Below are positions 2,632 to 18,602 of a stretch of DNA of 20,000 nt, one piece after another. The stretch lies in the IMG/VR virus record IMGVR_UViG_3300021425_003921, one strand, 5' to 3'. The notes under the pieces were generated by a model. The model saw nothing but the letters and a program-made list of their open reading frames with translations. It was not told where the DNA came from and made no database searches. Numbering within the stretch: position 1 is the first letter of the stretch; every line of letters starts with the position of its first letter. Position numbers and translations under genes: made by a program. The DNA is from an uncultured virus (IMG/VR IMGVR_UViG_3300021425_003921) (Duplodnaviria; Heunggongvirae; Uroviricota; Caudoviricetes).

Positions 2632-3036
2632 TTATATCTTTCTTTTGTTAATAGCATCGTATCTTATTGTTAATCCAATGGCTTCCTTAATAATATTATT
2701 GGGCCAATCATTAGATTCATCAATGCCGTGTTTTAGATATATATAGGCGGGGTCCATTTGGTTCCACCCACCGGCAATGTCCACCAGTCTAAAACCAAGA
2801 TATTCATCAATTACCTCAAGTTCGGTCATCACGCTATCTTGAAAACGGTTATTAATTTTAATATTTTGCAACAACAAATCTATTCTTTGTTGGGTCCATA
2901 CTCCTTCGTCAATTTGAAAATACCAACCTTGAGAATATAATTCTCGAAGAACTTCCTTAAGCGGAGTATCATACCTCTCCCATTGTTCCAAATATTCAGC
3001 AATATTTTCTTGGGCTGTTCTAAGATCAACTATCAT
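2632..3036 (-). CDS. Hypothetical protein with C-terminal YDAINKRKI motif
   Basis: True start probably ATG 3036 after SD AAGGTGAT; the longer 3207 start overlaps the upstream ORF. 134 aa. Confidence 0.7.
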   Translation of the reverse strand: MIVDLRTAQENIAEYLEQWERYDTPLKEVLRELYSQGWYFQIDEGVWTQQRIDLLLQNIKINNRFQDSVMTELEVIDEYLGFRLVDIAGGWNQMDPAYIYLKHGIDESNDWPNNIIKEAIGLTIRYDAINKRKI

Positions 3037-3040
3037 GATA

Positions 3041-3313
3041 TCACCTTCGGTCTTTTTTGAGCATATCTCTAATTCCGGGGATTTCGAAATCGACATTAGG
3101 TGCTTTGGTAATATCGGTAGCAGGTTTGGGTGCTCCCAATTTACTATCAGAACCAATCTTTTGACCACCTTTACCGGGGCGGGTGGCTTCATAATGGGCA
3201 TTAACAATATCTTGGGCAGTTAGGTTGGGTTGTAGTTGTGGTTTAACGCTGGAAGACATGATTTTATGTTTTTCTGCTTCCATAGCCTTTAAAATATCTT
3301 CTTTAGTAGTCAT
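3041..3313 (-). CDS. Hypothetical protein (90 aa)
   Basis: SD GAGGTGA upstream; overlaps the stop of the preceding gene. Confidence 0.7.
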   Translation of the reverse strand: MTTKEDILKAMEAEKHKIMSSSVKPQLQPNLTAQDIVNAHYEATRPGKGGQKIGSDSKLGAPKPATDITKAPNVDFEIPGIRDMLKKDRR

Positions 3314-3653
3314 GTGCTTTCACCTCGAATAAATATGCAGTCGTAAGATAACGATCTCCTTTTTTGCCTCGGTAGCGTTGAAAACTAAGAATTTGTTCTC
3401 TTGGGTCACCACCATCATAAAGAAACTTTTGCAAAAAGGAATCGGTCAATTCATTTAGGTAGGTCTTTACTTTAACCATGTCATAATCTTCAGGAAGTGA
3501 AAATTGCTCTATTTGCCAAGCCACAAAATCATCAGCGTGTTTTTGGGTTAAAATAACTCGAAGATTCAAAATTGGACCTTCATATTGATTTTGACCAATA
3601 TCTACCCATAACCAATATCGATCGGGTTGTCGTAGCCAATTAATTAGATTCAT
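3303..3653 (-). CDS. Hypothetical protein, N-terminal LINWLR family
   Basis: Begins MNLINWLRQ; ATGA overlap with the upstream gene. Confidence 0.75.
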   Translation of the reverse strand: MNLINWLRQPDRYWLWVDIGQNQYEGPILNLRVILTQKHADDFVAWQIEQFSLPEDYDMVKVKTYLNELTDSFLQKFLYDGGDPREQILSFQRYRGKKGDRYLTTAYLFEVKAHDY

Positions 3654-4069
3654 GATTTGACAACTCCGGTATTAAAAGCAAAATATTGGTCATCAGAACA
3701 AACAAAACTAATTTGTTCAGTTTCTCCTAATAAAATTTGTTGAAATAGTTTTTCTAAAATGGTTTGAACCTCTCCTGTTGTGGAAAGATAATTTTGTTCA
3801 TCCGAATCCATATTTTGATATGTTTCTGCCCACAAAGGACTGCGAGCATCAATTTGTGGCCTCCATTTTAATTCTAATATTCTACAATCACCGGTATTCC
3901 AATAATCGATAAGATATGACCAATTCGATAAAACTTTTTGATAAACTTCTCGTGAATAAAATTTAACGGTCAAATCTTGGTCATAAGATCCGTAAGAAGC
4001 CGTAAAAAAGGTTTCAGATTGACGGTGGCGAGATGGAGAATCTCGAATCCAATTAATGATTTCAGACAT
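3650..4069 (-). CDS. Hypothetical protein, N-terminal IINWIR family
   Basis: Begins MSEIINWIRD; TAATG overlap at 4067-4071 supports start 4069. Shares QDLTV with the upstream gene. Confidence 0.75.
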   Translation of the reverse strand: MSEIINWIRDSPSRHRQSETFFTASYGSYDQDLTVKFYSREVYQKVLSNWSYLIDYWNTGDCRILELKWRPQIDARSPLWAETYQNMDSDEQNYLSTTGEVQTILEKLFQQILLGETEQISFVCSDDQYFAFNTGVVKS

Positions 4070-4467
4070 TAGTTCCAACTCCCAATAGTATTGGTTGAAT
4101 CAAGACGATAAGTAGCATATTTCAAATCGTCAATATCATCGCCTGAACTCATACTAATATTTACAATATCAAAATTCTCTTGGGCTAAAAGAGTATCTCG
4201 CAAGGCAAAAACATAACTATAATCCTCATGATAAGAGTCTCTGCCTGTTCCAATCCTTATAGAAAGATGTTCAGTGTGGCCGTCAAGAAGATAATCGTTA
4301 TCTACCTCAAAAAAATCCATAACTTTTTCAATAAGACTTTTCCAAGTGTCTTGGACATTTGTAACTTGAACTAATGAAACCGTGAGATCTTGATTCCCAG
4401 CATCATAATTAGAAGAAGTCAATATCCAAATAGGTTTTCGGTCATGGAGCCAATTAATGATTTCCAT
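4069..4467 (-). CDS. Hypothetical protein, N-terminal IINWLH family
   Basis: Begins MEIINWLHD; ATG 4467 lies 22 nt from the TATA-type box. Confidence 0.75.
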   Translation of the reverse strand: MEIINWLHDRKPIWILTSSNYDAGNQDLTVSLVQVTNVQDTWKSLIEKVMDFFEVDNDYLLDGHTEHLSIRIGTGRDSYHEDYSYVFALRDTLLAQENFDIVNISMSSGDDIDDLKYATYRLDSTNTIGSWN

Positions 4468-4488
4468 AAGTGTATCTATGATACACAA

Positions 4489-4502
4489 CTACTTATAGTT
4501 TT
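4489..4502 (-). promoter_or_regulatory. TATA-type promoter AAAACTATAAGTAG
   Basis: Terminal G is 22 nt before ATG 4467. Spacer has gtgtatc-3nt-gatacac inverted repeat (4470-4486). Confidence 0.7.
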
Positions 4503-5653
4503 CACTCGTAATTACGAATCGTTAATCCCACAGGGAATCGAGGAATTCCTGCAGAAGTGTAGTCTTGGAACTTCACCGTTAATTTTTTGCCCACATATTT
4601 TTTGCCATCTTTGAGTAATTTGGCTCTCTCGGCACGAGTGCCTTTAGGACGAACCGTAAAGCGTTTCTTGGTTTTGGGAACTTCACAAGTCCAAATAACA
4701 GTTCCGGCATCATTGCCTTTTCCTTCCTGATAACCTACAATTTTAAATTCGGCATCATCGAATTTTTTATATTTTTGAAGATTATAAGAACGCTTTCCTT
4801 CGTAGGGGCTGGCAACATTTCGAATCATAACTCCTTCGTATCCAGCCTGTAGATTTTTAGTAAGAAGAGTTTCAATATCTTGAAGATTTTTAACTTGATA
4901 AATTGGAACCATAGTTAATCGCTTAGAAGTATCTTTTTTAACCAATTTGGTGGCTTCTGCATATCTCTTAGCAAAGGTTTTTCCGGGGTCTTTGGTATCG
5001 ATTAGATCGAAAACATTAAGTTTTACTTTTTTAGAATCGGCCACATCTTGAGGCTTTAATTTTTGCTTTCTTACTAAGCCTACAACTCGTTGAAAGTTTT
5101 CGGCTTGGTCTTTTCCAAGTTCGGTAGAATATAATTCTCCATCCAAAATAATGCCTTCGGGGAGTTTAATCTTTTTAAGAGCATCTCTGATTCCAGGAAG
5201 TTCTGGGAAGGGTTTATTGTTTCGAGACAGTAAAATAACATTACCTTTATGAATTTGAGCCAAACATCGAACACCATCTAATTTGGGTTGGGCAATAGCA
5301 GGCAATTGAATTTTTTTAGCGTGTTTTTCGTAGTTTTGAGCCAACATGGCTTTAACTCTAATAGATCCGACAGCACCCTTTCCAGAAGTATTGGTGGTAT
5401 AACCAGCATCCTTTTTCTTGGTGATTAAAGAATCAAATTGTGATTTGGATTGTTCTGCAAGTGAACGACCGGCTTTGCCTTTAGTGATTACCACTCCTTT
5501 GGTAGTAACCATTTTTCCTCCCTTGACACCGGTAGAAACTTTAATAACATGGTTGGAACCAACTTGTTCAACCCACCCTTTCCAATGACGGATTTTTCCA
5601 GTAGTATCAATTTTATAAAGATTGGTGGGGCCCAAAACAATAATGTTTGCCAT
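4502..5653 (-). CDS. lig: ATP-dependent DNA ligase (viral type)
   Basis: Motif I QPKLDGVR, III LDGELY, IIIa VFDL, IV EGVMIR, V KYKKFDDAEF, VI PRFP. N-terminal LYKxxxxGKIRHW domain. Start 5653 fixed by promoter spacing. Confidence 0.95.
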   Translation of the reverse strand: MANIIVLGPTNLYKIDTTGKIRHWKGWVEQVGSNHVIKVSTGVKGGKMVTTKGVVITKGKAGRSLAEQSKSQFDSLITKKKDAGYTTNTSGKGAVGSIRVKAMLAQNYEKHAKKIQLPAIAQPKLDGVRCLAQIHKGNVILLSRNNKPFPELPGIRDALKKIKLPEGIILDGELYSTELGKDQAENFQRVVGLVRKQKLKPQDVADSKKVKLNVFDLIDTKDPGKTFAKRYAEATKLVKKDTSKRLTMVPIYQVKNLQDIETLLTKNLQAGYEGVMIRNVASPYEGKRSYNLQKYKKFDDAEFKIVGYQEGKGNDAGTVIWTCEVPKTKKRFTVRPKGTRAERAKLLKDGKKYVGKKLTVKFQDYTSAGIPRFPVGLTIRNYE

Positions 5654-5674
5654 AATATTTATTAGGGGTATCAT

Positions 5675-5687
5675 CTATATAAAGTTT
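5675..5687 (-). promoter_or_regulatory. TATA-type promoter AAACTTTATATAG
   Basis: Terminal G is 22 nt before ATG 5653. Confidence 0.7.
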
Positions 5688-6021
5688 ACGGAGTTTTTCT
5701 TTTTAGATCTAATTCACAAACGGTGCAAATTAAACGAGCCTCTGAAGTGTGAGTTCTAATTTTATCCCATGATTGATCTTCTACAGGCATAGGTAACACA
5801 GATTCATCAAGAGATCTAATTCGTAGATATTGCCAAATAGTTGAATTACAATGTGGACAAGCCCCACCTAAAGCCGAAACTAACCAATCGTGTTTTTCTT
5901 GACGAAGTGATTTTTTATTGGCTTTAGCCCGAGGTTTGATATCTTCAGCATTGGCACGATAATATTTTTTATTATATTGAGCCATATATTGCTTCTTCTT
6001 TTCGGGATTGGAATAGGGCAT
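5686..6021 (-). CDS. HNH-fold zinc-binding protein, probably catalytically inactive paralog of 1873-2274
   Basis: MPYSNPEKKKQY...DWLVSALGGACPHC...SWDKI...LICTVC aligns by eye with the first HNH; the catalytic HH is replaced by RS. Confidence 0.7.
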   Translation of the reverse strand: MPYSNPEKKKQYMAQYNKKYYRANAEDIKPRAKANKKSLRQEKHDWLVSALGGACPHCNSTIWQYLRIRSLDESVLPMPVEDQSWDKIRTHTSEARLICTVCELDLKRKTP

Positions 6022-6042
6022 AAGATGATTTTATCATCTCGA

Positions 6043-6055
6043 CTATATATATTTT
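6043..6055 (-). promoter_or_regulatory. TATA-type promoter AAAATATATATAG
   Basis: 22 nt before ATG 6021. Spacer has agatgat-3nt-atcatct inverted repeat (6023-6039). Confidence 0.7.
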
Positions 6056-6067
6056 GTCTTCAAGACC

Positions 6068-6382
6068 CTACATCATGTTTTGCAAAAAGGCTAAAAATCC
6101 TGGAACGGCGGCTACTAATAAAGCCCACCAACGATTTAGTTTTCGATCGGCCTCAGCCACCTTTTCTTCGATAACTGCCAACCGGGTAGTTAGCGGGGGT
6201 TGTCCGTTACCATCACGGACGGTTTTCAATAATCCGGAAAGGTCTTCTTTGAGATCTCCAACCGTGTGTTCTAAATTACTAAGAGAATGAGAATAAGAAT
6301 CAGAATCGGCAATAAAACCTTGCATCATATCTGCAAAGTCACGAAGGGCTTCTTCAACTCCGATTAAATCATCACGAGGCAT
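6068..6382 (-). CDS. Coiled-coil protein with one C-terminal transmembrane helix (XhlA/holin-like architecture)
   Basis: Heptad-like region followed by RWWALLVAAVPGFLAFL; SD AAGGAGTGA upstream. Function is inference. Confidence 0.6.
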   Translation of the reverse strand: MPRDDLIGVEEALRDFADMMQGFIADSDSYSHSLSNLEHTVGDLKEDLSGLLKTVRDGNGQPPLTTRLAVIEEKVAEADRKLNRWWALLVAAVPGFLAFLQNMM

Positions 6383-6387
6383 TTAAT

Positions 6388-6534
6388 TCACTCCTTAAGA
6401 AAACGAAGTGATTTAGCAAGTAAAACTTGGGCACAATGATTCAAATGTTGCAATCGATGAGCAACATTATTACAATGAACTTGCGTCATAATGGCGGAGT
6501 GTTCGGCTTTTTGAACTGCTAATTCAAACTCCAT
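6388..6534 (-). CDS. Small hypothetical protein (48 aa, not in ORF track)
   Basis: MEFELAVQKAEHSAIMTQVHCNNVAHRLQHLNHCAQVLLAKSLRFLKE. ATG is 22 nt from the TATA box at 6556-6568 and the ORF fills the gap. Confidence 0.6.
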   Translation of the reverse strand: MEFELAVQKAEHSAIMTQVHCNNVAHRLQHLNHCAQVLLAKSLRFLKE

Positions 6535-6555
6535 GGACTGATTTTATCAGCCTTG

Positions 6556-6568
6556 CTATATATAGTTT
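6556..6568 (-). promoter_or_regulatory. TATA-type promoter AAACTATATATAG
   Basis: 22 nt before ATG 6534. Spacer hairpin GGCTGAT-AAA-ATCAGTC. Confidence 0.7.
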
Positions 6569-6575
6569 AGGGTTA

Positions 6576-6830
6576 TTAATAACCATTTCGCTTTAATCCC
6601 CATAGATTGACTTGATGGCTACGAGTTCGGCTAAGAGAACTGGTATCTACTTTATCTAATAACACAAATTCTGAATTGCCTCGCAAGGCAAAGGTAATTT
6701 CCCGGGGTGTGGGAACATGGCGGCGACCGGAAGTAACAATGGCTTGTCGAATTTGTTCAGCAGTAGCGGGATGTCGAGCCAAAAGGGTTTTGGCATGATC
6801 GATGATTACTTGTTGTTTTGAGCGGCCCAT
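6576..6830 (-). CDS. Small basic protein, putative winged-helix DNA-binding; paralog of 10902-11141
   Basis: TAEQIRQAIVTSGRRHVPTPREITFALRGNSEF vs TAQTMIDRLFDVGRREIPPKRSLSALMKQDPDF. Confidence 0.6.
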   Translation of the reverse strand: MGRSKQQVIIDHAKTLLARHPATAEQIRQAIVTSGRRHVPTPREITFALRGNSEFVLLDKVDTSSLSRTRSHQVNLWGLKRNGY

Positions 6831-6851
6831 ATAATCCTTTGGGATATACTA

Positions 6852-6865
6852 CTATTTGTAGGTTT
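6852..6865 (-). promoter_or_regulatory. TATA-type promoter variant AAACCTACAAATAG
   Basis: 22 nt before ATG 6830. Confidence 0.55.
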
Positions 6866-6887
6866 CGGTTATACCAAACAAGGCAAT

Positions 6888-8909
6888 TTATTCCTCAGCA
6901 ACCAAATCAACCCCATCAGAAGATACGGATACAAAGTCAATATCACAGACATCGTTATCACAGAATCGCTCGGCTACAATTTCTTCACCCTTAACACGAC
7001 CAAAGTTGAGTTTGCCAAGTCCAGATTTCATGTCGTTGTAAGTAGATAAATCGATAGCCTCATATGGCATTTGTGGGAAAGCCCCGAAGTCAAGTTTCGG
7101 AAGGAAAGAAATTCCTTTTAATTGATATTGGAAAACATCAAGGGCGGAAGCAATTTGCGAACCTTCAGTTTCGGGTTGGAAAGTCACGGTGCAAGAAACT
7201 TGATTATCGGCCCAATAGCGTTGAGCGACGGCAGCCAACGATAATTGTTCCCACATAGAAACTTGGTCTACGGTGCGAACTCCTTCACCAACATCTACGG
7301 GAATTTCGACGACGACGGTATCTTCTTCAGCACCGACACAAGGTTCGACCTTGTATCCGGCCTTAACTAATGAGGGAACCAAATTGGAGATTTTGCCTAA
7401 TCGCATTCGACGAATATAATATCGGCTCTCGGGAAAGTGAATTCCGGGGGTTGCACCCGCCAATAATGATACGGTGCCGGACGGCTTAATACTGGTAGTT
7501 TTAATAGATTTAGGAATGGCGAACCAATCAGAATATTCGGTGTCTAATTTTTGAATGTGGTCATATCCCGTATCCATCCAATTAATTAGATTACTCATTC
7601 CTCGATCTGCGAGGAATTGGGCAATTCCAGACATACTACAACCAATTCGTCGGTTGCGTAGCATTACTCGGTTGGTTTCCGGCCAATGGGTTTTACCAAG
7701 AGTCACAGTTTTGGCATACAGATAAGCGTATTTGAGAGTCTTGAGATAATCTTCGATGGTTTCGTGATTGTTGGGAAAAGTTTCCACAAGGCAACACAAT
7801 TCATAAGATTCTAAAGTTTGTTCCAAACACGGATTACCGCCTTTGGCTCGGTGGTCTTTGTTATTAATAGGGTCTTTCATTCGGCCATAAGCCTTCATGT
7901 TATCCAACCACGCATAGCCGGGTTCACCATTGAGGTTCACTCTTTCAGCCGTTGGGCCATAATCCATACCTACGGTTGCGAAAACGGAGTTATTAGAAGT
8001 CCATCCGTATTCGGCACGATGGGGATTTACTTCGTAATTTTTAAGGTCAATGTATTCTTCTGAGTCGGCAGGACCAAACACAATTTCGGCGGTGCGTCGG
8101 ACATTGCCAGCGACTACACACTTGCCAATCAAATTCATGATATCTACAATAGCAGTTTGACTGATAGGAGATCCGATTTCTTGAGATAGCACGGAATCGA
8201 TTTGAGTGTGAAGATCAATAAGGGGTCGAGGTCCGGAAGATTCGCCTCCAAAACCACGAATGGGTTCTCCAGCCGCTCGAATTTCAGAATAATCAAAAGT
8301 AATTGGGGCGGTGCCGAGGAAATAAGATTCAATTTGCATTCTAACAGAATCTACCCATCCTTCTCGGGTATCGGGAATAACAAATTGTTCGGGGCGACGA
8401 GTAGTTGAGGGGCCTTTGATTAATACCTTTCCAGCACCTTTGACATCGAATCCAACGCCAACACCCAACATAGAAGCATCCATCAGGAAGGTAAAGGGAG
8501 CCGAAAGATCTTCTTTAAGATTTTCGGTGGACACGAAAGCACAGTTATTGAGAGCAGCAAAAAGTCCTTTTTCTTCCGTGATGGGTGTTCCCATGGCCCA
8601 AAGCCCTCTTCCCGGCGGTAAGAATTTCATGTTGAAAATACGGTCATACATTTCTTGAGCAGAATGTTGGGCTTTCCAAGCATTCCAACCTAAGCCATGT
8701 GTTTCAATATGTCGCTTTTGCATATTATAAGTTCCTTCGACAACACGGCGAACAGTTTCCCACCATTGTTCGTTTTTTCCATCGTCCTTAAGGCGACTGT
8801 AAGTGCGGTTGTAAACCAATTCTCCAAGACCGTTAAATCCGAAAGGAGCCTTTTTGCGACGGTATTTTTCGACGAATGAATCGGTGAGGTAGAACTTGTT
8901 TTCAGACAT
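6888..8909 (-). CDS. nrdJ: Class II adenosylcobalamin-dependent ribonucleotide reductase, monomeric RTPR type
   Basis: YNRTYSR, PPGRGLW, LNNCAF, GNVRRTAE, radical-cysteine loop GNPCLEQ, KPSGTVS, C-terminal CDNDVC redox pair. 673 aa. Confidence 0.96.
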   Translation of the reverse strand: MSENKFYLTDSFVEKYRRKKAPFGFNGLGELVYNRTYSRLKDDGKNEQWWETVRRVVEGTYNMQKRHIETHGLGWNAWKAQHSAQEMYDRIFNMKFLPPGRGLWAMGTPITEEKGLFAALNNCAFVSTENLKEDLSAPFTFLMDASMLGVGVGFDVKGAGKVLIKGPSTTRRPEQFVIPDTREGWVDSVRMQIESYFLGTAPITFDYSEIRAAGEPIRGFGGESSGPRPLIDLHTQIDSVLSQEIGSPISQTAIVDIMNLIGKCVVAGNVRRTAEIVFGPADSEEYIDLKNYEVNPHRAEYGWTSNNSVFATVGMDYGPTAERVNLNGEPGYAWLDNMKAYGRMKDPINNKDHRAKGGNPCLEQTLESYELCCLVETFPNNHETIEDYLKTLKYAYLYAKTVTLGKTHWPETNRVMLRNRRIGCSMSGIAQFLADRGMSNLINWMDTGYDHIQKLDTEYSDWFAIPKSIKTTSIKPSGTVSLLAGATPGIHFPESRYYIRRMRLGKISNLVPSLVKAGYKVEPCVGAEEDTVVVEIPVDVGEGVRTVDQVSMWEQLSLAAVAQRYWADNQVSCTVTFQPETEGSQIASALDVFQYQLKGISFLPKLDFGAFPQMPYEAIDLSTYNDMKSGLGKLNFGRVKGEEIVAERFCDNDVCDIDFVSVSSDGVDLVAEE

Positions 8910-8931
8910 GAAATAAAAGTCTTGCTTCCTC

Positions 8932-8944
8932 CTATTTATAGTTT
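8932..8944 (-). promoter_or_regulatory. TATA-type promoter AAACTATAAATAG
   Basis: 23 nt before RNR ATG 8909. Confidence 0.7.
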
Positions 8945-9043
8945 GACACGAAGGTTTCTAAACCCTCTTTATTTTTGTTTAGTTTTATTTGGCTTGATTA
9001 TAGTTGTTTGGTATTAGGCGGACTCAAGACCCATTTTCTGGAG

Positions 9044-9057
9044 ATACCTATAAATAG
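9044..9057 (+). promoter_or_regulatory. TATA-type promoter ATACCTATAAATAG (divergent from RNR promoter)
   Basis: 23 nt before ATG 9080. Confidence 0.7.
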
Positions 9058-9079
9058 GTGACAACGGTAAGATGGTGTC

Positions 9080-9268
9080 ATGAAGATTCCAGAAATTTTC
9101 GTTGCCAAGGTTCGTGATTATCTGTTAAACCGACATAATACTCGATTAAAGGCGGTGTTATTGACTATGATTGAGGAGTTAGAAGCCGAAGACATTGATA
9201 AAGCCGCTCTTAGAGAAATGTTGGATGAGATTGAAGATGGAAAAATTACGGGTGATTTCGGTGCCTGA
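9080..9268 (+). CDS. Hypothetical protein (62 aa, helical, acidic)
   Basis: ORF with promoter at the conserved spacing. Confidence 0.7.
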   Translation: MKIPEIFVAKVRDYLLNRHNTRLKAVLLTMIEELEAEDIDKAALREMLDEIEDGKITGDFGA

Positions 9269-9506
9269 TTTAGTTTATAATGCCTTAATCCAACTAACAC
9301 GGATTATGTTATACAACTCTTCGGAAAGGTATGTAGACTTATGTATTCAACTGCTTAATGAAAATCAAAATCATCGTCAATATGACGCTTTAGAAAAAAT
9401 CTTTAATGATTTTATGCAGTTTTTAGATGAAGAACCCAATGAAGAAGATCGACAACATATGGATGAACATCTTGAAAAAATTCTCAATAATGAATTTGAT
9501 TGGTAA
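9261..9506 (+). CDS. Hypothetical protein (81 aa, acidic)
   Basis: Likely GTG start 9261 after SD GGTGA (9251-9255), overlapping the upstream stop. Confidence 0.65.
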   Translation: MPDLVYNALIQLTRIMLYNSSERYVDLCIQLLNENQNHRQYDALEKIFNDFMQFLDEEPNEEDRQHMDEHLEKILNNEFDW

Positions 9507-9517
9507 TCTATAAATAG
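9505..9517 (+). promoter_or_regulatory. TATA-type promoter AATCTATAAATAG
   Basis: 22 nt before ATG 9539. Inverted repeat cataaaa-taa-ttttatg (9525-9541) includes the start codon. Confidence 0.7.
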
Positions 9518-9538
9518 TAGAGGGCATAAAATAATTTT

Positions 9539-9946
9539 ATGATTCTTACTTGGAATCCTGCTTTTAGAATGCTGTTAGAAGCATTCAATGATGGAAACGA
9601 AAGAGTTTGGTTATTATATGGTTTAAATAATGCAAGTTTTTTAGAATCGGATTTTTGGCAAAGAATTAAAAACGCTAATCCTTATTTAGCCTCTTCGACC
9701 ATTATAGAAGAGTATGAAAAAATGGAAGACTCTTACGAATTCCCGGGTGGCGATTTAGAAGATTACAAAACAAACTTTAAAAAAATATTAATGAGTCCTA
9801 ATTATCGTGAAGCAGAATTTGAGGGTATATGGGATGAAAGAGAAGAATGTTGGTATATCAACAATAATTGGTATTTGGCTCCTTTTGTTTTGACCCCCAA
9901 ATATTTATTACAACAATCTATTAATTATAATAAATTAAAGTTGTGA
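9539..9946 (+). CDS. Hypothetical acidic, aromatic-rich protein
   Basis: 135 aa; ends QQSINYNKLKL, a possible degenerate AINK motif. Confidence 0.7.
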   Translation: MILTWNPAFRMLLEAFNDGNERVWLLYGLNNASFLESDFWQRIKNANPYLASSTIIEEYEKMEDSYEFPGGDLEDYKTNFKKILMSPNYREAEFEGIWDEREECWYINNNWYLAPFVLTPKYLLQQSINYNKLKL

Positions 9947-10372
9947 TGCGGGGAAAATAGTGTAAATGTTTTCCCATTGACCTTCGCCCTGATTTTCCCA
10001 CCAAAAATGAATAGTAATGGGTGATTGTATTTTCCACGGATCGGCAATTATATCGGAAATAATGTTTCGAATTTTATCTACTTTATTAAGCCATGCAGGA
10101 TCCGAAAAGTTTTCTGAATCTTCTCTCTCGGCCATATAGTAAGGATTAGAACCCATAATGGATGGGCCTTCAGTATAGAATCCAGCAACATCGAAATTTT
10201 CATATTCGTCCCAAAATTCATTTTGGTCAAACATTCGAACCTTTAAAACTTTGGTGTCTTGACCTTTTTTAAGCATATTGGTAATATTAGCGGTTTCCCT
10301 TTCTGCATAATTTATATGCAGATATTGAAAAAAGACAACATCAGAATTGCGAAGCCAATTGATAATCCCCAT
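9935..10372 (-). CDS. Hypothetical protein, N-terminal IINWLR family
   Basis: Begins MGIINWLRN; SD GGAGGAG at the end of the upstream gene. Confidence 0.75.
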   Translation of the reverse strand: MGIINWLRNSDVVFFQYLHINYAERETANITNMLKKGQDTKVLKVRMFDQNEFWDEYENFDVAGFYTEGPSIMGSNPYYMAEREDSENFSDPAWLNKVDKIRNIISDIIADPWKIQSPITIHFWWENQGEGQWENIYTIFPASQL

Positions 10373-10380
10373 AAAAAGGA

Positions 10381-10890: not shown

Positions 10891-10901
10891 CGATAATCAT
10901 C

Positions 10902-11141: not shown

Positions 11142-11145
11142 GGGG

Positions 11146-11868
11146 TCACTTCCTTGGGGCTACTAAGGCGGTCATGTCAATAGACTCGTAAGTCCATTGG
11201 AATTCAATTGGGTTGTCAGGACCACCACGAAGCGTGAGGTCTTGCTTGGGGGCAGCAGTTAAAACAGATTTAACTTCTTCGGTGGTAAATTGTGAGGAGC
11301 CAATAGTTCCGGTAACTGTTTGTTGAAGTGGTGTCCAAGAAATAACTTCGTCACCTGAACCAGTAGTCCACACTAAATCTTGGTTATCGTTAGCATTGAT
11401 AATAAAACTCAAATTTTTCCCTGAAGTTTTGATAAAGTCGTTAGCCTCTTTGCCGGGGATAGTGGCATCATAGTTATGGTCAATGGCAGGCCATTCAGAA
11501 ATTTGGTGCATAAGGTCTAATCGCAATAATTTGATGTTTTGACGAATGCCGTTGGCTTGAAGATAAAAGCGATCGTTTTCATAAGTAAAAACTAATTCAT
11601 CTTTGGCAGTAAGCGTTTTGATAATTTGTCCCATACGACTAAAGATAACACCAATATCTAAATGCGTTTGAGTAGATACCCAAGAATAATCTAAGAAGGC
11701 GTCGGCCGGGGCCACGATTCGCAACATTTTATAACGATTGCCATCAACTAACATAGTAGACAATCCTTCGGAATCCCATCGAAGAATTCCTTCTTCGTTA
11801 ATGGCTTCCATGGCTCGCAAAATATTTTTAGCAAGTGGCACTCTGATTTTGGCTTGTAGTCGGGTCAT
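11146..11868 (-). CDS. pcn: DNA polymerase sliding clamp (archaeal-type PCNA, divergent)
   Basis: 240 aa. N-terminal ILRAMEAINEEGILRWDSEGLSTMLVD..MLRI...AFLDY, IGV, late PIEF and C-terminal LVAPRK match the PCNA pattern. Confidence 0.85.
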   Translation of the reverse strand: MTRLQAKIRVPLAKNILRAMEAINEEGILRWDSEGLSTMLVDGNRYKMLRIVAPADAFLDYSWVSTQTHLDIGVIFSRMGQIIKTLTAKDELVFTYENDRFYLQANGIRQNIKLLRLDLMHQISEWPAIDHNYDATIPGKEANDFIKTSGKNLSFIINANDNQDLVWTTGSGDEVISWTPLQQTVTGTIGSSQFTTEEVKSVLTAAPKQDLTLRGGPDNPIEFQWTYESIDMTALVAPRK

Positions 11869-12353
11869 GATTCATTCTCTCCTATCCATTCGTGGGAATA
11901 ACATACGACACCATATCGCACGGCGGCATTACTCATATTACGGTTACGACCTTCATGTAGTTTTCGGGCAATTCCGTTTTTGCTGGTAGGTCGCCACTTA
12001 GGAGATTTGTTGCGATACATACCTAATTTGGGATTAGTAGTTTTGCTATAATAGCGTTTTCCCTCGGATTTTATAATCATGCCGATACATTCCGATAAAG
12101 CCGTTCCTAATCCCATGCCTTGAAAGTCCGCAAGAATAACTAAGCGATGTTCTCGAAAAGCATTTTTGAGTGTTCCGCTGGGTTGAGGTAATACCGAGTT
12201 GAAGCCTACTAATTCGTCATTAAGATAAGCCACAAAACATCGGGCGGCAACATTTAATTGATTAGAAAGATAGTGATGCTTTTCAAAAACTTTCCAATAA
12301 GTTCTTTTGGCTTCAGCACCAAAGATCTCAAAGACCTCAATATTCAATTTCAA
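11865..12353 (-). CDS. GNAT acetyltransferase, Mom-like (HHYL motif)
   Basis: FEKHHYL near the N-terminus; acetyl-CoA motif A RLVILADFQGMGLG. Overlaps both the ABC ATPase and PCNA genes. Confidence 0.8.
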   Translation of the reverse strand: MKLNIEVFEIFGAEAKRTYWKVFEKHHYLSNQLNVAARCFVAYLNDELVGFNSVLPQPSGTLKNAFREHRLVILADFQGMGLGTALSECIGMIIKSEGKRYYSKTTNPKLGMYRNKSPKWRPTSKNGIARKLHEGRNRNMSNAAVRYGVVCYSHEWIGENES

Positions 12354-12951
12354 TTCGAGCCACTCTCCTGCGGTGAGTTACATCCATCTCTGCTAAGGCC
12401 ATACTATCGGTATCGAAAATCCAATCTGGTTTAAGCCAATCAATAATATCACGATGACAAGAAGCCAAAACAATGTTTTGGAGTCCTTCAGTATGAACAT
12501 AATTATGAAGAGCGATAGAAAGTGATTTGGCGACTTCTCGATTTACAACGGAAGTGTATTCATCAATAATGGCTCCATCAGATAGTTGTCGTGCTACATC
12601 GGCTCTAAATCTTTCTCCATTAGACAAAACTCGATAAGGTTTCGTCATGCTGGGAATTGATGATAATCCACAAGCCATTAGTTTTTTAACGGCTTCTTCG
12701 GGATTAGCGAAATGAGAAACGATAGCCCGATCAGACTGCCATTCATGACCTACTTCAGTAAAATTAAAATAATTTTTTAGGATTTGGGATTTTCCTGAAC
12801 CGGAAGAGCCCACGATTAAACCAATTTTGAAATTTGCCGGGGCGGTGAAATCGGGGAGGGTGAACTCAGAAGTTCCATCGAATTCATAATCAAAAGAATC
12901 GGCAAGATAATCTGTAAATTCATCAGGAATAACTTGACAAACTAATTTCAT
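12337..12951 (-). CDS. Soluble ABC-type ATPase (GNAT-associated viral family)
   Basis: Walker A GSSGSGKS, signature LSNGE, Walker B AIIDEY, H-loop ASCH. No TM partner. Start 12951 from promoter spacing. Confidence 0.88.
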   Translation of the reverse strand: MKLVCQVIPDEFTDYLADSFDYEFDGTSEFTLPDFTAPANFKIGLIVGSSGSGKSQILKNYFNFTEVGHEWQSDRAIVSHFANPEEAVKKLMACGLSSIPSMTKPYRVLSNGERFRADVARQLSDGAIIDEYTSVVNREVAKSLSIALHNYVHTEGLQNIVLASCHRDIIDWLKPDWIFDTDSMALAEMDVTHRRRVARIEIEY

Positions 12952-12972
12952 GAAGAAATTTAAGGTTACCAC

Positions 12973-12986
12973 CTATTTATAGATTT
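12973..12986 (-). promoter_or_regulatory. TATA-type promoter AAATCTATAAATAG overlapping the upstream stop codon
   Basis: 22 nt before ATG 12951. Confidence 0.7.
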
Positions 12987-13417
12987 TGCTTATTGATAGC
13001 GGCCACAAATTCGTAAGATGGCAATTCAGAAGACATAACTGTGGTGACGGCTCGTTCTCCGTTTCTTACTTTTTCTAAAGACCGTAAAGAAACAAAATAA
13101 GTGAGTTGAGGATCGAAATCCTCAGTTAAAAGACTAATTTTTATATTTTTGCCTTCTACACTACTACGGCGGGCGTATCCGGCCAATTCACTGTTGGTGC
13201 TTTGAAATTGATTATCAATCTTGGGAATATCTCCGTCCACAGGTAATTGAAAATTCAGGGCTGTATATTTTTGGCCGTCGGAAGTCATGTATGTTTTGAC
13301 ATCATAAAATCCTTGGTTAAGAATAATAACTCCGGTGTCTAAATCAATACTTCCAACAAGTTTTGTTCCTCCAGCAGTGGGAGACTCATAAACTCCGTAA
13401 ATATTGTAAGACACCAT
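12977..13417 (-). CDS. Hypothetical beta-rich protein with C-terminal AAINKQNL motif
   Basis: 146 aa with its own promoter. Confidence 0.7.
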   Translation of the reverse strand: MVSYNIYGVYESPTAGGTKLVGSIDLDTGVIILNQGFYDVKTYMTSDGQKYTALNFQLPVDGDIPKIDNQFQSTNSELAGYARRSSVEGKNIKISLLTEDFDPQLTYFVSLRSLEKVRNGERAVTTVMSSELPSYEFVAAINKQNL

Positions 13418-13438
13418 GCGATGACTTTATCATCGCTA

Positions 13439-13450
13439 CTATTTATGTTT
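13439..13450 (-). promoter_or_regulatory. TATA-type promoter AAACATAAATAG
   Basis: 22 nt before ATG 13417. Spacer hairpin GCGATGAT-AAA-GTCATCGC (13418-13436). Confidence 0.7.
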
Positions 13451-13454
13451 TTCC

Positions 13455-14852
13455 TTATTCCGTAGATTGAGAACGATTTAATGATCGCAAAATTGGTCGA
13501 AGATTAGAATTATCGTTAGAACCTCCATCCACTCGCCTTACGATATGATCGAAGTCGATAAGTCGTGGATGCACGGTAGTTCCGGAGATTGAACAAGTAA
13601 TCATGCCTTCAGAATCCATATGCGTTTCACGAAGTTCTTGGCGTTGCTTTTTGCTAATTGGTGCATTGACTTGAGGCATTCCGTTGGAATAAAGATGGTT
13701 TTCTAATTCTTCATAAGCCGTGTCAATCATGGCTAAATAGGATGAAGTATCAATACTATCTCCACGACCAGCAATTTTTACTGCAATCAAAGAAGTATTG
13801 ATTTGTGGTTCCTTTTGAACAAAATCATTAATCCATTTAGCAATAACTTGACTTTGCATAGAAAGATTAGAAATATTGTGATTTGCAAGTAAATGGCTTA
13901 GTATAATCGTGATGAAAATAGTCTTTCGAGGGTCATTACCCGAAAGAATTTCAATTCCATGTCCTGCAACTGCAGCGTAAAGATCTAAATATTGCCGTGT
14001 TTCATCTAACATATTCTTGAGATCTTTTTCAGAAAGGGTGCTCAAAGTATTGGTATCAAATTTAAACTCTTGACCATTTTTAAAGTTAGAATTATTGTTG
14101 ATATATTGATAATAATATTGTAGATGCTTAAACAAGGCTTGGATATTAGTAAGGTGGTCCATGTTTACAGAATAACCTTCATTACAATAATCTTTCCATT
14201 GTGATTTGTGAGCAAAATCATAAAGAGTTCTATAATTTGTTCGAAGATAGTTTCGAGAATGATATTTTTGCATGGGTTTAAGTCCTGTTGTCCCATCATT
14301 TAATCTAAGAAAAATATCTGCTGCTGTCCAACCATTACCTTTAGCAAATTCATACACATTAATTCTTGCATTTTCCATGTTATCTTGTTCAGTAGCAGGC
14401 AAATTGGTATAACTTCCAGAATATTTTTTTGCATTTTGATTTTCGGTAAGTGACATATATCGGCCTTGAATTTTAATATCATCATCCATATATTTCATAA
14501 GAGTCATAATTCGATGTTGTCCATCAATGATATAGTAACAAAAATTACCATCATCAAATTCCTTTTTCTCAACCATAATTTCTCCAATAGTAATATTACA
14601 AAGAACAGAATCTACCAAGCGACTGTTCCATCCTGTTTTTCGGTCTTGATATTTGCGTTGGTATTCATCAACCTTTAGACGACCTTTTTTATACAAATTA
14701 AAAAACTTTTGAAGGTTCCATGCTTGACAAGTTCCGAGGGCTTTTTTAAGTTGATTCTGTTTTGTGTTTGGTTTCTCTACCAAATCTTTTGGATCTGTGA
14801 CGACTTGGCTATTGACTGTTATGGCTTCTTCTTCTGTAATTACGACATTCAT
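13455..14852 (-). CDS. DUF262 (ParB/Srx-fold) plus C-terminal HNH nuclease, GmrSD-like
   Basis: YQRKY..W, LVDSVL, IIDGQHR and IFLRLNDG match DUF262 motifs; C-terminal CSISG..DFDHI...GGSNDNSNL..LN is HNH. ATG 14852 follows SD GGAGAGTGA. Confidence 0.85.
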   Translation of the reverse strand: MNVVITEEEAITVNSQVVTDPKDLVEKPNTKQNQLKKALGTCQAWNLQKFFNLYKKGRLKVDEYQRKYQDRKTGWNSRLVDSVLCNITIGEIMVEKKEFDDGNFCYYIIDGQHRIMTLMKYMDDDIKIQGRYMSLTENQNAKKYSGSYTNLPATEQDNMENARINVYEFAKGNGWTAADIFLRLNDGTTGLKPMQKYHSRNYLRTNYRTLYDFAHKSQWKDYCNEGYSVNMDHLTNIQALFKHLQYYYQYINNNSNFKNGQEFKFDTNTLSTLSEKDLKNMLDETRQYLDLYAAVAGHGIEILSGNDPRKTIFITIILSHLLANHNISNLSMQSQVIAKWINDFVQKEPQINTSLIAVKIAGRGDSIDTSSYLAMIDTAYEELENHLYSNGMPQVNAPISKKQRQELRETHMDSEGMITCSISGTTVHPRLIDFDHIVRRVDGGSNDNSNLRPILRSLNRSQSTE

Positions 14853-14907
14853 ATTTATCACTCTCCTGTTCTGATTTTACTTAAAAATCAATTACCCTTA
14901 TAAAGTT

Positions 14908-15660
14908 TTATGTATTGTTGTTGCCCATAAAGGAATCAAAATGAGTTTTAGACTTGGGATCTAAATCAATTAAAATGGCGGTGCGGTTGTGGTCTTCGCA
15001 AACCGGCCATGTGCTACAAGAACCTGCGAAACCATCTAAGACGACATCATTAGGGTCGGTGGTAGACAACACCATGCGTTTAATGAGGTCATAGGGGATT
15101 TGGTTATACCATCCTTTGTGTTCTGCTGAGCCAGCCTTAACCATATTTATTTCCCACCAATCATAAGGACTAACGCCCTTACTGCCTTTGGCAATTTGCT
15201 TTTGAACTCGTGGGTCATTTGGATTTTTGTAGGGCATCGGGTCAGCCTTGTTGTTAAACTTGGGTTGCTCACAATCTTGATGAACAAACCAAAGCAAAGC
15301 ACGGTGAGCCGTAGTAAATCGCTTTTTGGTCATACCAATGTTACTGGGATAAACCCACGAAATCCATTGTTGAAGTCGATAACCTTTGGACTCAATAATG
15401 GGAAGTAAACGAGCACAGGCTTCGGGATAGTGAACTAAGAAAGCCGAACCATCGGCTGACAAAATGGGTTTGAGGGCTTCAAAAGTATCTCCGATAAGAT
15501 CGTGATATTCGTTTTCGGGAAGGTTGTCATCAACAAGATTAGAATAACGGAAACCAATGTTGTAAGGCGGGTCAAAGAAAGCAGTATTGATTTCTTGTGA
15601 TTCAGTTTGCAGTTGTTTGAGGGCAGAAACAACATCGGTGTTGATAAAACGATGGGCCAT
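14908..15660 (-). CDS. DNA amino-methyltransferase, beta class (N6-adenine/N4-cytosine family)
   Basis: Catalytic motif IV FDPPY precedes SAM-binding motif I VLDGFAGS; 250 aa. Confidence 0.92.
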   Translation of the reverse strand: MAHRFINTDVVSALKQLQTESQEINTAFFDPPYNIGFRYSNLVDDNLPENEYHDLIGDTFEALKPILSADGSAFLVHYPEACARLLPIIESKGYRLQQWISWVYPSNIGMTKKRFTTAHRALLWFVHQDCEQPKFNNKADPMPYKNPNDPRVQKQIAKGSKGVSPYDWWEINMVKAGSAEHKGWYNQIPYDLIKRMVLSTTDPNDVVLDGFAGSCSTWPVCEDHNRTAILIDLDPKSKTHFDSFMGNNNT

Positions 15661-15681
15661 AATAATGGTTTACGAAACCAC

Positions 15682-15694
15682 CAATATATAGTTT
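15682..15694 (-). promoter_or_regulatory. TATA-type promoter AAACTATATATTG
   Basis: 22 nt before ATG 15660. Spacer inverted repeat tggttt-3nt-aaacca (15666-15680). Confidence 0.7.
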
Positions 15695-15695
15695 A

Positions 15696-16463
15696 TCAAA
15701 AGAGTGTCTTTTGTTCACCGACTTCTTGTGGTTCCGAAGCAATGTCTTCAAGACCTTGTAGGTTGGGATTGTTGCCGACGGCTTGGAAGATAATTTCTCG
15801 ATCAACTTCAGGATTCCATGTTTGGTCAATAAATTCCATAATGCGTTTGTAAGTTACGCTGGAAGGTTTTACACCGACTTCTTCTGAGGTGGTTCTAAAA
15901 TTAACTATGAAATCACCGATAGAACCATAGGTTTCGTAAATCTTTTTAGCAAGTTTCTTACCGACTCGTGGGATTTGTTCTAACACCGCATGATGTTTAT
16001 TGCTGGTAGAAGTTACTACCGTCACAGGACGAATTAATTGATGTAATTCTTCTTCTTCCATGCGAAGAGCATGACTTCTAATAAACCGAATAGTTTCGTC
16101 AAGGGAATCGGTATATACTACAGGAATGGCTTCGCTGGTAAGTCGGTTAAAAAATTGTTGGAGGGATTGAATCTGATTAGAATTGGCGGTGAAAATATCC
16201 CGAGGCGAGCCTTCGATAATAAGATAATTACGACCTCCAGAGGCTACTAAACGAGTGATTTGTTCTTGCATACGGCGAGAAGTCCAAGAAGAGTAAGCAT
16301 CACTCCATGTTTTTCGCTCGAATAACGAGAAATTCCCGGGGTTATCGTAATCATAAACTTTGATGTCGCCTTCGGAAAGGTTTTCTATGTCGGCATTGAG
16401 CAACATTTTGAACATAGTTTTAGTGTTGTCAGATTCTTTAGAATCAATGCTGATAGCGATCAT
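15696..16463 (-). CDS. ERCC4/XPF-family structure-specific nuclease with HhH domain and C-terminal clamp-binding motif
   Basis: IDSKE, GD...FERKTWSD, LIIEG, HhH IPRVGKKLA, C-terminal QKTLF. Start 16463 from promoter spacing. Confidence 0.88.
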   Translation of the reverse strand: MIAISIDSKESDNTKTMFKMLLNADIENLSEGDIKVYDYDNPGNFSLFERKTWSDAYSSWTSRRMQEQITRLVASGGRNYLIIEGSPRDIFTANSNQIQSLQQFFNRLTSEAIPVVYTDSLDETIRFIRSHALRMEEEELHQLIRPVTVVTSTSNKHHAVLEQIPRVGKKLAKKIYETYGSIGDFIVNFRTTSEEVGVKPSSVTYKRIMEFIDQTWNPEVDREIIFQAVGNNPNLQGLEDIASEPQEVGEQKTLF

Positions 16464-16484
16464 AAAAAATATACAAACAATCAC

Positions 16485-16517
16485 CTACTTATATGTTTGT
16501 TAGAAGATTATAAATAG
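16485..16517. promoter_or_regulatory. Back-to-back divergent TATA-type promoters
   Basis: Minus strand AAACATATAAGTAG (16498-16485) is 22 nt before ATG 16463; plus strand AAGATTATAAATAG (16504-16517) is 22 nt before GTG 16539. Confidence 0.7.
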
Positions 16518-16538
16518 TAGCGATGACGATGTTATTGT

Positions 16539-17033
16539 GTGACGGGAATTGTTAATTGGTTACGAGAGTCTGGTATATCGGATTATCCGTTGATTAGAAT
16601 AATTAAATCAGATAGTGCTGCGAGGGAGACCATAGGTGAAATTTTAGAAAACCAATTAGGAGTAGATATTGTAGATAACTCTGCTTATTTTGCTAATAAC
16701 AATGCTAACAAAATTATAGAAATTACAACCAATAACCTTGATCGGCCCCGTGTCGAGCGATTATTAAAATATCAAGATAAATATTTTAAGGATGCGACCG
16801 TAATTGTTTTAGAATCTTATAATGAAAAACAATTTCTTGATGATGTGGTTTTGGGGATAGATTATGGGCCATCTTACTTGCCGGTATGGGTTGCTAAATT
16901 TAATTTGAATGGTAATAATTATTATTTGGTTATTGATAATGAATTGGATTGTAGATTTGGTTGGGCAGTAATAAATAATCAAAAAACCCTTGTTACTACT
17001 TTGGAAGACTTATTGAGAAGATATAGGGATTAA
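16539..17033 (+). CDS. Hypothetical protein, N-terminal IVNWLR family
   Basis: Begins MTGIVNWLRE; first gene of a five-gene plus-strand operon. Confidence 0.75.
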   Translation: MTGIVNWLRESGISDYPLIRIIKSDSAARETIGEILENQLGVDIVDNSAYFANNNANKIIEITTNNLDRPRVERLLKYQDKYFKDATVIVLESYNEKQFLDDVVLGIDYGPSYLPVWVAKFNLNGNNYYLVIDNELDCRFGWAVINNQKTLVTTLEDLLRRYRD

Positions 17034-17035
17034 TC

Positions 17036-17557
17036 ATGTTGCCAAATTATAGTGTCACTTTGGACAAAAATAATCTTGTGGAAGAGATCGTTATCGATAA
17101 AGATTTATTTGTAAATGGTAAAAATTATTATATGAAAGTGATCGGAATCAACTCGTTTGGACATACTATTACTACTTACGAATTTAAAATCAAAAAAATA
17201 CCACAATTTTTTGATAATCGATTGTGGAAAAATTTTGATTTGGAGGGATTAATAATTTTTAATCCCTATGAGACTTCCAAAACCGAGGATACGGTTGTGT
17301 GGGATGGTAAGATAAAAAAACGACAGGTTATTCCTGAGGAGGAAAAATTTAGCCATTTTGATTCACAAATAGAAAGCATACTATCACAAAAATGGCCTAT
17401 TTGGAGTAAAGTTGAGGGGGTTTGGATTACTCCTGAATTTAAAGATGTTCCCAGTTTTTTGTATCGAGAATGGGTAATGGGAAATCTTTTGCAAGATATT
17501 GAAATTTCGTTTGAAGAAATAATCAATCCGATGGCTATCAATCAGGAGGTGATATGA
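17036..17557 (+). CDS. Hypothetical protein with C-terminal MAINQEVI motif
   Basis: 173 aa; coupled to neighbours. Confidence 0.75.
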   Translation: MLPNYSVTLDKNNLVEEIVIDKDLFVNGKNYYMKVIGINSFGHTITTYEFKIKKIPQFFDNRLWKNFDLEGLIIFNPYETSKTEDTVVWDGKIKKRQVIPEEEKFSHFDSQIESILSQKWPIWSKVEGVWITPEFKDVPSFLYREWVMGNLLQDIEISFEEIINPMAINQEVI

Positions 17558-18063
17558 TGACTTATTTTCCTTCCGAACAATGGAGTAATAAATTATTTTC
17601 AATGGGGCAATATGGAAGTATTTTCGATGAATTTTTAGATCTACCAAGTTCGTATAAATTACTGATGAAATTGGCTAAAGAAAACTTACAAAAAGGACCT
17701 ACTTCACAAGTTTCTTTTGGTCCTGATTATAACGAATATTTATTAGAATTATCAAAACAACACGGGATATTTTTATTGACTAATCCATCATATAAAGAAG
17801 ACCAAGATTTAGGAGATAATTTAATAGTGGTGCCTATGTTTATAGAACATAATAAACAAAGAGGAAGGTTAGAACCCACAGATGTATGGACAATTGATTT
17901 AGATAATCAAACTTATGATGGGATTCCGCTTAGCGATGATTATAATGGTTCGGTTTATGATATTTATAAATTAGGTAAGCCTTTTATGTTTAAAGTAGAA
18001 AATTTTTTCCGAAAACATTATGATGAAACTTATGATGCTATTAATAAAAGGAGGGTGTTATAA
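17554..18063 (+). CDS. Hypothetical protein with C-terminal YDAINKRRVL motif
   Basis: 169 aa; ATGA overlap, SD GGAGGTGA. Confidence 0.75.
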   Translation: MMTYFPSEQWSNKLFSMGQYGSIFDEFLDLPSSYKLLMKLAKENLQKGPTSQVSFGPDYNEYLLELSKQHGIFLLTNPSYKEDQDLGDNLIVVPMFIEHNKQRGRLEPTDVWTIDLDNQTYDGIPLSDDYNGSVYDIYKLGKPFMFKVENFFRKHYDETYDAINKRRVL

Positions 18064-18602
18064 TGTTTAAACCGGAAGTGTGGGCCATTATTTATAATCG
18101 GTTTAAAACCGATAAATATGATACTTCTCGTTGGTCTGATGCCGCAATTATGAAAACATTAAAGGGTTCGGATGTAACTTTAACATGGTATCCTGAAATG
18201 TCGGCAGCAGATTGGTGGACTTTTTATGAATTAGGTGATTTAACAGCAAATGATGAAAGAATAGTTGCTGAAGTTTCTTTGCCAAAAAAAGGTTTTTGGG
18301 CGAGATTACATCATGCTTATGCTACTAATAGAATACTTTTTACTGATAAAGATGAAAGGGAATGGTATGATGAATGGATAAAACCTTTTGATGATCCATT
18401 GAGGGAGGATTGGCCTGATGTATATACAAAAACCCCAAGAGATTATATGAATAATGCTCGCAATTATTTTGATAATGAAGCACCTATCGAAATGATGAAT
18501 CAAGAAAACTTTGATGTGAATAATCCTGCTGTTTTGTGGGAGTGGCGTCCACCTCAAGAAAATAATTATTGGCAAGCAATTAATAAGCAAGAGGTGTTAT
18601 AA
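18063..18602 (+). CDS. Hypothetical Trp-rich protein with C-terminal WQAINKQEVL motif
   Basis: 179 aa; TAATG overlap. Confidence 0.75.
   Translation: MFKPEVWAIIYNRFKTDKYDTSRWSDAAIMKTLKGSDVTLTWYPEMSAADWWTFYELGDLTANDERIVAEVSLPKKGFWARLHHAYATNRILFTDKDEREWYDEWIKPFDDPLREDWPDVYTKTPRDYMNNARNYFDNEAPIEMMNQENFDVNNPAVLWEWRPPQENNYWQAINKQEVL

Follow-up and report, generated by a model that had tools for sequence, protein, structure and literature searches.

The 20,000-nucleotide stretch of DNA analysed here, hereafter the window, makes up the right-hand end of a 74,005-base contig recorded as the uncultured virus IMGVR_UViG_3300021425_003921, and it carries a series of small genes whose otherwise dissimilar products share a short peptide built around Ile-Asn (hereafter referred to as the tag; genes are named by family). 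The tag is C-terminal in F45 (2632-3036, minus strand, 134 residues from its likely start; RYDAINKRKI at 2635-2664), F22 (12977-13417, minus, 146 residues; FVAAINKQNL at 12980-13009), F18 (17036-17557, plus, 173 residues; NPMAINQEVI at 17525-17554), F52 (17554-18063, plus, 169 residues; TYDAINKRRV at 18028-18057) and F17 (18063-18602, plus, 179 residues; YWQAINKQEV at 18567-18596), and, as a SINY variant, in F50 (9539-9946, plus, 135 residues; LQQSINYNKL at 9908-9937). All five AIN[KQ] endings of a preliminary description of this DNA were recovered, with the Ala 7-8 residues from the end. The start of F45, formerly placed at 3201, is likely at 3036 instead, because a Shine-Dalgarno (SD) sequence precedes 3036 and the part upstream overlaps a conserved open reading frame (ORF) at 3041-3313.

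A related peptide lies at the N-terminus of F44 (3303-3653, minus; LINWLR at 3630-3647), F39 (3650-4069, minus; IINWIR at 4043-4060), F258 (4069-4467, minus; IINWLH at 4444-4461), which is the first gene of its run and stands behind a TATAAGTAG box, F49 (9935-10372, minus; IINWLR at 10349-10366) and F59 (16539-17033, plus; IVNWLR at 16548-16565), which stands behind a TATAAATAG box. In F19 (18603-19283, plus, 226 residues from a TTG codon), a gene missing from the preliminary list, the tag is internal (FPESINRVDV at 19149-19178) and the protein ends in LxSLFG. With F59 as its first gene, 16539-19283 forms a run in which every gene is tagged. Further members lie beyond the window on the contig (C1 25014-25802, 50070-50603 and 52520-53404), and the tagged share of the contig comes to 14-15 of about 100 genes.

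The expression AIN[KQ].{3,4}$ matches five of the 98 ORFs of the contig, all within the window, and AIN occurs only twice elsewhere in 23,505 residues. With no motif named in advance, one genome by itself is marginal, also in the comparison with shuffled C-termini proposed in the preliminary description: some tripeptide was shared by at least five C-termini in 74 of 2000 draws of internal windows and in 169 of 2000 sets of shuffled C-termini, and the p value corrected for any tripeptide is about 0.04-0.08. Relatives are decisive, and 58 loci around relatives of the viral PCNA were therefore fetched; the 978 ORFs called there and the 98 of the contig were clustered, with 14 residues masked at both ends, into 259 families. 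Among the 62 families without a member in this genome, AIN[KQ] was found within the last 20 residues of three and nowhere in their 7,371 internal residues. A wider pattern, defined post hoc, was found in 16 of 132 families, the GmrSD-HNH family discussed below among them, as against a null mean of 0.11 and a maximum of 2 in 300 draws. In leave-one-family-out scoring with the consensus given below, 11 of 16 families exceeded all 20,173 internal windows, the other five being matched by 1-9 of them.

The family-weighted consensus of the C-type tag is [YF][YH][DQ][AS]-I-N-[KYR]-x-x-[ILV] and that of the N-type tag, at N-termini, M-x(1-3)-I-I-N-W-[LI]-R; 17 families including F19 carry the former and 14 the latter (16 and 13 after merging of relatives). 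The observation is thus real and broader than first described. The SINY ending at 9946, offered earlier as a possible case, belongs to the motif and is present in 4/4 members of its family. The fixed position of AIN at seven or eight residues from the end does not extend to the relatives, in which the tag lies 4-20 residues from the end across families and 10-49 residues from it in the F19 family. The last residues had been ascribed to the SD sequence of the next gene; the hydrophobic residue at Asn+4 is not merely such a by-product, because it recurs in endings that overlap no SD sequence. Three other candidates were set aside: the ending of the GmrSD-HNH family (TINRS/SLNRS), dropped before the family counts as the chance end of an HNH motif, and AINEEGI in the viral PCNA and LINWM in the ribonucleotide reductase, both in enzyme cores with a low score or a place outside the top matches and read as chance. 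The peptide is virus-specific: none of 1,798 ORFs of the host-type genome G001 (2.0 of 2.06 Mb) carries a tag at the matching end, compared with 5 and 6 of the 98 viral ORFs, and the DNA pattern of the N-type tag gave one match in five host-type genomes against one control match.

The tag is conserved as protein. Counted over 893 distinct gene ends, the final 66 coding bases contain [GTA]CNATHAAY 103 times in frame as against 6 and 2 times in the other two frames (20, 4 and 2 when counted by families), and GCNATHAAY 59, 0 and 1 times. Because the search pattern required I and N, the first two codon positions of the pair prove nothing, and the argument is carried by the frame test and by the third positions. 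The latter are free, in line with the synonymous variation noticed at the outset: in 83 contexts the Ile codons ATC, ATT and ATA number 36, 33 and 14, and the Asn codons AAT and AAC 42 and 41. Synonymous codon identity between families is 0.47 within a locus (191/406) and 0.43 between loci (4,475/10,536), codon usage predicting 0.31-0.59. The distance from the tag to the next ATG varies from 20 to 107 nucleotides, and a TATA box follows the tag in only 33 of the 83 contexts. Conservation of a frame-independent DNA word at a fixed distance from the next start, the outcome named beforehand as fatal to a protein tag, accordingly did not occur.

On these counts, and since 82 of 85 homologs of F19 retain the tag at an internal site 10-49 codons from the end, a purely DNA-level origin of the motif, as a site of recombination or regulation beside the SD sequence or TATA box or as the relic of a cassette insertion, and as protein only by accident, is highly improbable. 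What speaks for a DNA feature are a few exact matches of 15-18 nucleotides over the tag, common to different families, and residues after I-N that track the slot before gene F20 and not the family. Both fit occasional crossovers at the tag, which are a likely route of its spread and not the reason for its retention; a cassette mechanism at the DNA level, as once suggested, is not supported. A nested insertion in which N- and C-tags would be halves of one recombined site was rejected, as their numbers do not pair and conservation is in frame. Among the joints listed between the contigs of four runs and the window, none removes a tagged gene at its tag, and the joint from 18596 to 18061 in X4 is what a relative carrying a similar tag upstream would give.

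The proteins behind the tags show no such kinship. After removal of the tags, profile-profile comparison found one of 602 family pairs significant (F18-F61, E 1.8e-4), and the five AIN[KQ] families of the window gave E values of 6.3-21 among themselves, which agrees with the earlier statement that the five bodies are unrelated and leaves no sign of full-length homologs, within the limits of shallow alignments used without context pseudocounts, from which very remote kinship could escape. F49 and F145 (E 0.084) align well and were merged. The five genes are not ORFans, as they belong to families of 5, 12, 14, 4 and 14 members in the fetched loci. F17 has 16 homologs at 42-87% identity, all 16 with [AT]IN, displaced by a single residue in the three most divergent ones, and I-N is invariant in the alignments of F18 (12 rows, 17-44% identity), F52, F45 and F6. 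The tagged genes have a guanine-plus-cytosine (GC) content of 0.35 vs 0.41 and an aromatic residue content of 0.15 vs 0.09, and their products are 27-71% identical to those of the relative L007, PCNA, ligase, ERCC4, methylase and ribonucleotide reductase being 80-95% identical. Different tagged families occupy the same slots in relatives: F22, F6 or none before PCNA; F52, F18 or F61 before F17; and F258, F39 or F127 after the ligase. A search of the ESM Atlas with the product of 18063-18602 gave no usable match, and the AlphaFold model of the F17 family (mean predicted local distance difference test score, pLDDT, 41.9) was unusable.

A single movable motif likely underlies both the AIN and the IINW tags, because one aligned position in the tails of F22-type proteins reads AINK, SINR, AINW, FINW or VINW, and also AINY and LINW; the residue after Asn is most often R (10 of the 19 long forms), followed by W (6), with K in two and Y in one. 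P0058, a homolog left out of this alignment, lacks a tail and has VINWRK in the segment that links its two halves, and the IINW type therefore occurs both C-terminally and internally. AINW or SINW also ends members of F6 in the fetched loci, and three of five F49-type proteins combine an N-terminal tag with a terminal x-I-N-[PL], which may or may not be a tag. Runs with N-tags only and with C-tags only exist in relatives (L023), and the tag classes are therefore not obligate pairs. The preliminary description had proposed a two-address system; this is weakened by the variants at one site and keeps in its favour the separate consensuses by placement. Two addresses, an N-terminal IINW[LI]R and a C-terminal [AS]IN[KYR] read by different partners or sites, would account for W after Asn in 13 of the 14 N-families and K, Y or R in most C-families, and for the position of N-tagged genes, which stand first where both classes share a run. 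Against the K, R, Y and W found at one aligned C-terminal site, the internal tag of P0058 and the unpaired runs, this alternative is quite unlikely.

F22 provides a tagged relative of a small host gene. Its profile matches 82 proteins among 1.84 billion representatives, most of them single domains of about 70-110 residues without a tag. In a collection of species genomes the domain was found in 177 stretches, of which 80, titled mostly Poseidoniales or marine euryarchaeote, were kept; the host gene is present once per genome in 5/5 genomes, and x-I-N follows the domain in none of 78 parsed host copies (of the 80). The host protein of about 70 residues (L062-L141, e.g. L082:2501-2755) has no Pfam family. 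F22 consists of one and a half to two copies of this domain in tandem, followed by a tagged tail: it and 18 further long forms, chosen by eye among the 82 as tandem forms, have two profile matches each, the first partial, and the Asn is invariant in 19/19. The AlphaFold model places residues 1-131 in a compact domain, largely of beta structure (mean pLDDT 77.3), and gives residues 135-146, which include the tag, a pLDDT below 50, so that the tag is predicted to lie on a flexible tail outside the folded domain. Foldseek with this model gave no match at E<=0.001, and its best VIA match (Z 4.0, root mean square deviation 2.9, 74 aligned residues) shows neither a new nor a known fold; a first genome-contig scan with query A3 gave no match. 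As the host gene is widespread and single-copy, capture from host to virus is inferred.

F19 combines a host module with an internal tag. Its positions 1-52 are common to two genes in 5/5 host-type genomes, one of them RNA polymerase subunit A'' (PF04998, E 2.5e-49) and the other a protein of 216 residues, which from its motifs we take to be subunit Rpo5. SINR sits 37-40 residues before the end of F19 and is invariant in 9/9 alignment rows at about 28% identity; [SA]INR lies 10-49 residues from the end of the 82 full-length homologs that carry it, the three others appearing truncated or frameshifted, and among proteins that match the N-terminal module alone a loose tag match was found in 2 of 35. 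F19 contains GLGSLF twice, and LGSLFG ends 59 of the 85 homologs; this motif is presumably clamp-like. From its sequence F19 is possibly an RNA polymerase decoy or a clamp-tethered transcription factor. For the other 29 tagged families no host match was found in the ORF set of G001, which is incomplete, because it missed the small F22 counterpart, and alignments of seven tagged families matched none of five host genomes. The earlier idea of a module appended to newly acquired genes is thus supported for F22 and F19, whose host counterparts are untagged, and not as a DNA cassette.

The contig also carries genes for a DNA ligase, a class II ribonucleotide reductase, PCNA, an ERCC4 nuclease, a methylase and a GmrSD-HNH protein (Pfam/PHROG), and none of the tagged proteins scanned has a meaningful Pfam or PHROG family. 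The viral PCNA has 27 relatives at 51-81% identity; the related genomes span 118-176 kb, and because these relatives sit on contigs of up to 176 kb the 74-kb contig is probably a partial genome. The host is likely an archaeon of the marine order Poseidoniales, since the gene at 77-1771 matches a protein of G001 at E 8e-243 and two of the tagged genes have counterparts in genomes of Poseidoniales type. The product of 77-1771 (minus) is a surface-type protein with Gly-Gln and Asp-rich repeats, encoded at a GC content of about 0.52 that exceeds the rest of the contig. At least half of the sequence words of the window were found in 3 of 22 listed metagenome runs, from seawater or marine samples (one possibly its own source), and no RNA run among those listed holds them; scans of a viral contig collection with ERCC4, PCNA and two further queries (A2, A1) gave no relative.

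Pfam/PHROG scans of this partial contig revealed no HK97 capsid, portal or prohead protease family, and its HerA-type ATPase (C1 25843-27000) matches a PHROG labelled terminase large subunit. Three paralogs (C1 8665-10000 and 49548-50057) are capsid candidates, with feature matches in the Atlas to viral clusters and, as a lead only, the PM2 P2 jelly-roll as the nearest named family (0.77-0.78). An ArsA/Get3 ATPase (PF02374, E 6e-55) is encoded at C1 44704-45702 (L003:8704-9702). Many proteins of C1 1-45000 end in a hydrophobic segment with basic residues and have many [FYMH]xAE motifs, possibly protease sites; at C1 27040-36321 a vWA protein, an HExxH protein and a 1,450-residue AAA protein adjoin, and the proteins of C1 14630-15361 and 51169-52191 have in common a C-terminal module of 53 residues (72% identity). 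Within the window, two overlapping genes at 11865-12951 (minus) encode an ABC-type ATPase and a GNAT protein, the two halves of PHROG 11143, a pair that precedes PCNA in only some relatives. The ERCC4 nuclease (15696-16463, minus) ends in QKTLF, QKRLF in a relative, which we take for a clamp-binding-like motif. A [TC]ATAA[AG]TAG box stands about 25 nucleotides before many starts of the contig (29 on the coding minus strand) and often overlaps the previous stop codon; other starts have a TATATA variant.

Known viruses of Poseidoniales comprise, according to PMC11706807 and PMC10768690, Magrovirales (Aoguangviridae, Apasviridae, Krittikaviridae) and Adrikavirales, and Aoguangviridae are predicted to be head-tail viruses. 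The present contig resembles them in its marine source, its large genome and its likely host order, and differs from head-tail Aoguangviridae in its HerA-type ATPase, Get3/ArsA ATPase and many membrane-tailed proteins. Of the two occurrences of the word motif in PMC11706807, at least one concerns helix-turn-helix motifs. No paper describing this motif or lineage was found by title or the start of its abstract, and supplements may hold these genomes.

Considered together, one Ile-Asn peptide on many unrelated, fast-changing proteins, at either end or inside, suggests by analogy a docking label for one shared partner, probably for putative loading into the virion, a reading for and against which the balance is about even. 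New or captured genes would acquire the tag through recombination into a slot whose gene already carries it, both tag forms would be one motif read by a single partner, presumably a particle-assembly protein, and the tagged proteins, as host-takeover or counter-defence cargo like the internal proteins of T-even phages, would be loaded into the virus particle and delivered to the next host cell. More tentatively, and less likely than not, a position-independent tag may load about 30 families of host-mimic and counter-defence proteins into the particles of a large virus of Poseidoniales that would contain a membrane and have no tail, and that would graft the tag onto recruited host genes such as the RNA polymerase module and the duplicated small core gene. 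Several observations weigh against the loading reading. A motif scan found no conserved copy in the core or structural proteins of the partial contig, most tagged genes are found among replication genes and outside the left half, which looks structural, and promoter boxes fail to set tagged genes apart from either class. The W-forms of the C-terminal tag come from proteins without genomic context, and in the fetched loci nearly every tag at an N-terminus reads IINW[LI]R, most of those at C-termini reading [AS]IN[KYR]. The untagged F51 (32%) and F10 (62%) diverge from L007 as much as tagged proteins do, a host counterpart was detected for only 2 of 31 tagged families, and the host-to-virus direction of F22 is inferred from single-copy spread and not from a tree.

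The location among replication and repair genes would suit a tag that docks to an intracellular hub (a viral or host AAA+ ATPase, the viral clamp, or a replication or transcription factory), the proteins never being packaged. The contig offers candidates for such a hub in an AAA+ ATPase like that of the host (E 3e-57 to a host protein) and in the large AAA protein with its vWA partner, and the RNA polymerase-derived module of F19 fits action in the infected cell. As regards the clamp, the C-form departs from the PCNA-interacting peptide (PIP) box pattern, with K/Y/R-x-x-aliphatic after I-N, and the ERCC4 family has its own Q-x-x-L-F ending. Complex prediction for the viral PCNA and residues 146-179 of the F17 family scored 0.01 against a mark of 0.32, which speaks neither for nor against the clamp. 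As none of the 1,798 host ORFs has a terminal copy, there is no sign of mimicry of a terminal host motif, and docking to such a hub appears somewhat unlikely. An invariant Asn may also be a chemical site, at which a protease or transpeptidase would cut or link at I-N, trimming the protein or attaching it covalently to a carrier; Asn-directed proteases, ligases and isopeptide bonds do exist, and Asn is the sole fully invariant residue (19/19 long forms; all families), on a predicted exposed tail, although the requirement for I-N in the motif definition inflates its invariance across, not within, families. As the Pfam scan of 77 contig proteins revealed no enzyme family of this kind, and as the residues after Asn differ widely between forms, this chemistry is very unlikely.

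If docking for virion loading is nevertheless taken as the working interpretation, comparable tags are known. The capsid targeting sequence (CTS) of T4 is N-terminal and is removed by the prohead protease. The present tag resembles the T-even CTS (IPI and kin) in that a short conserved peptide is what a variable set of otherwise unrelated small proteins has in common, and it differs in sequence, in its N-terminal, C-terminal or internal position, and in its occurrence in a marine archaeal virus whose partial 74-kb contig yielded no HK97 capsid, portal or prohead protease family. In T4, according to a passage of PMC3012670, diverse internal proteins share only the capsid targeting sequence. Foreign proteins can join the T-even set by way of the tag; there packaging has been shown, and here it is putative. 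Encapsulin cargo-loading peptides are likewise short and sit on flexible N- or C-terminal tails of folded cargo proteins unrelated to one another, where a single shell protein reads them; they belong to cellular compartments, and each operon encodes one cargo type or a few. The placement of the tag on a predicted flexible tail in one family, F22, is similar; the consensus is another one, and no encapsulin family was found among the 77 scanned proteins of the partial contig. The PIP box (Q-x-x-[LIM]-x-x-aromatic-aromatic) is a short linear motif found, often terminally, on many proteins of unrelated kinds; this virus encodes a PCNA and the I-x-x-W-L of the N-form resembles the PIP core, but the C-form has no aromatic pair, its Asn is invariant, and the proteins that carry it are not replication enzymes. 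The tag would thus work like the CTS of T4 or the peptides of encapsulins and, by position and sequence, is a member of neither. The principle is already known from T4; if this is a loading tag, T4-style cargo addressing would extend to a virus without head-tail genes in its known part, addition of a tag to host-related genes, including a piece of RNA polymerase, would be shown, and the motif would serve as a sequence handle for the likely host-takeover arsenal of an undescribed virus lineage whose host order consists of abundant, uncultured marine archaea.

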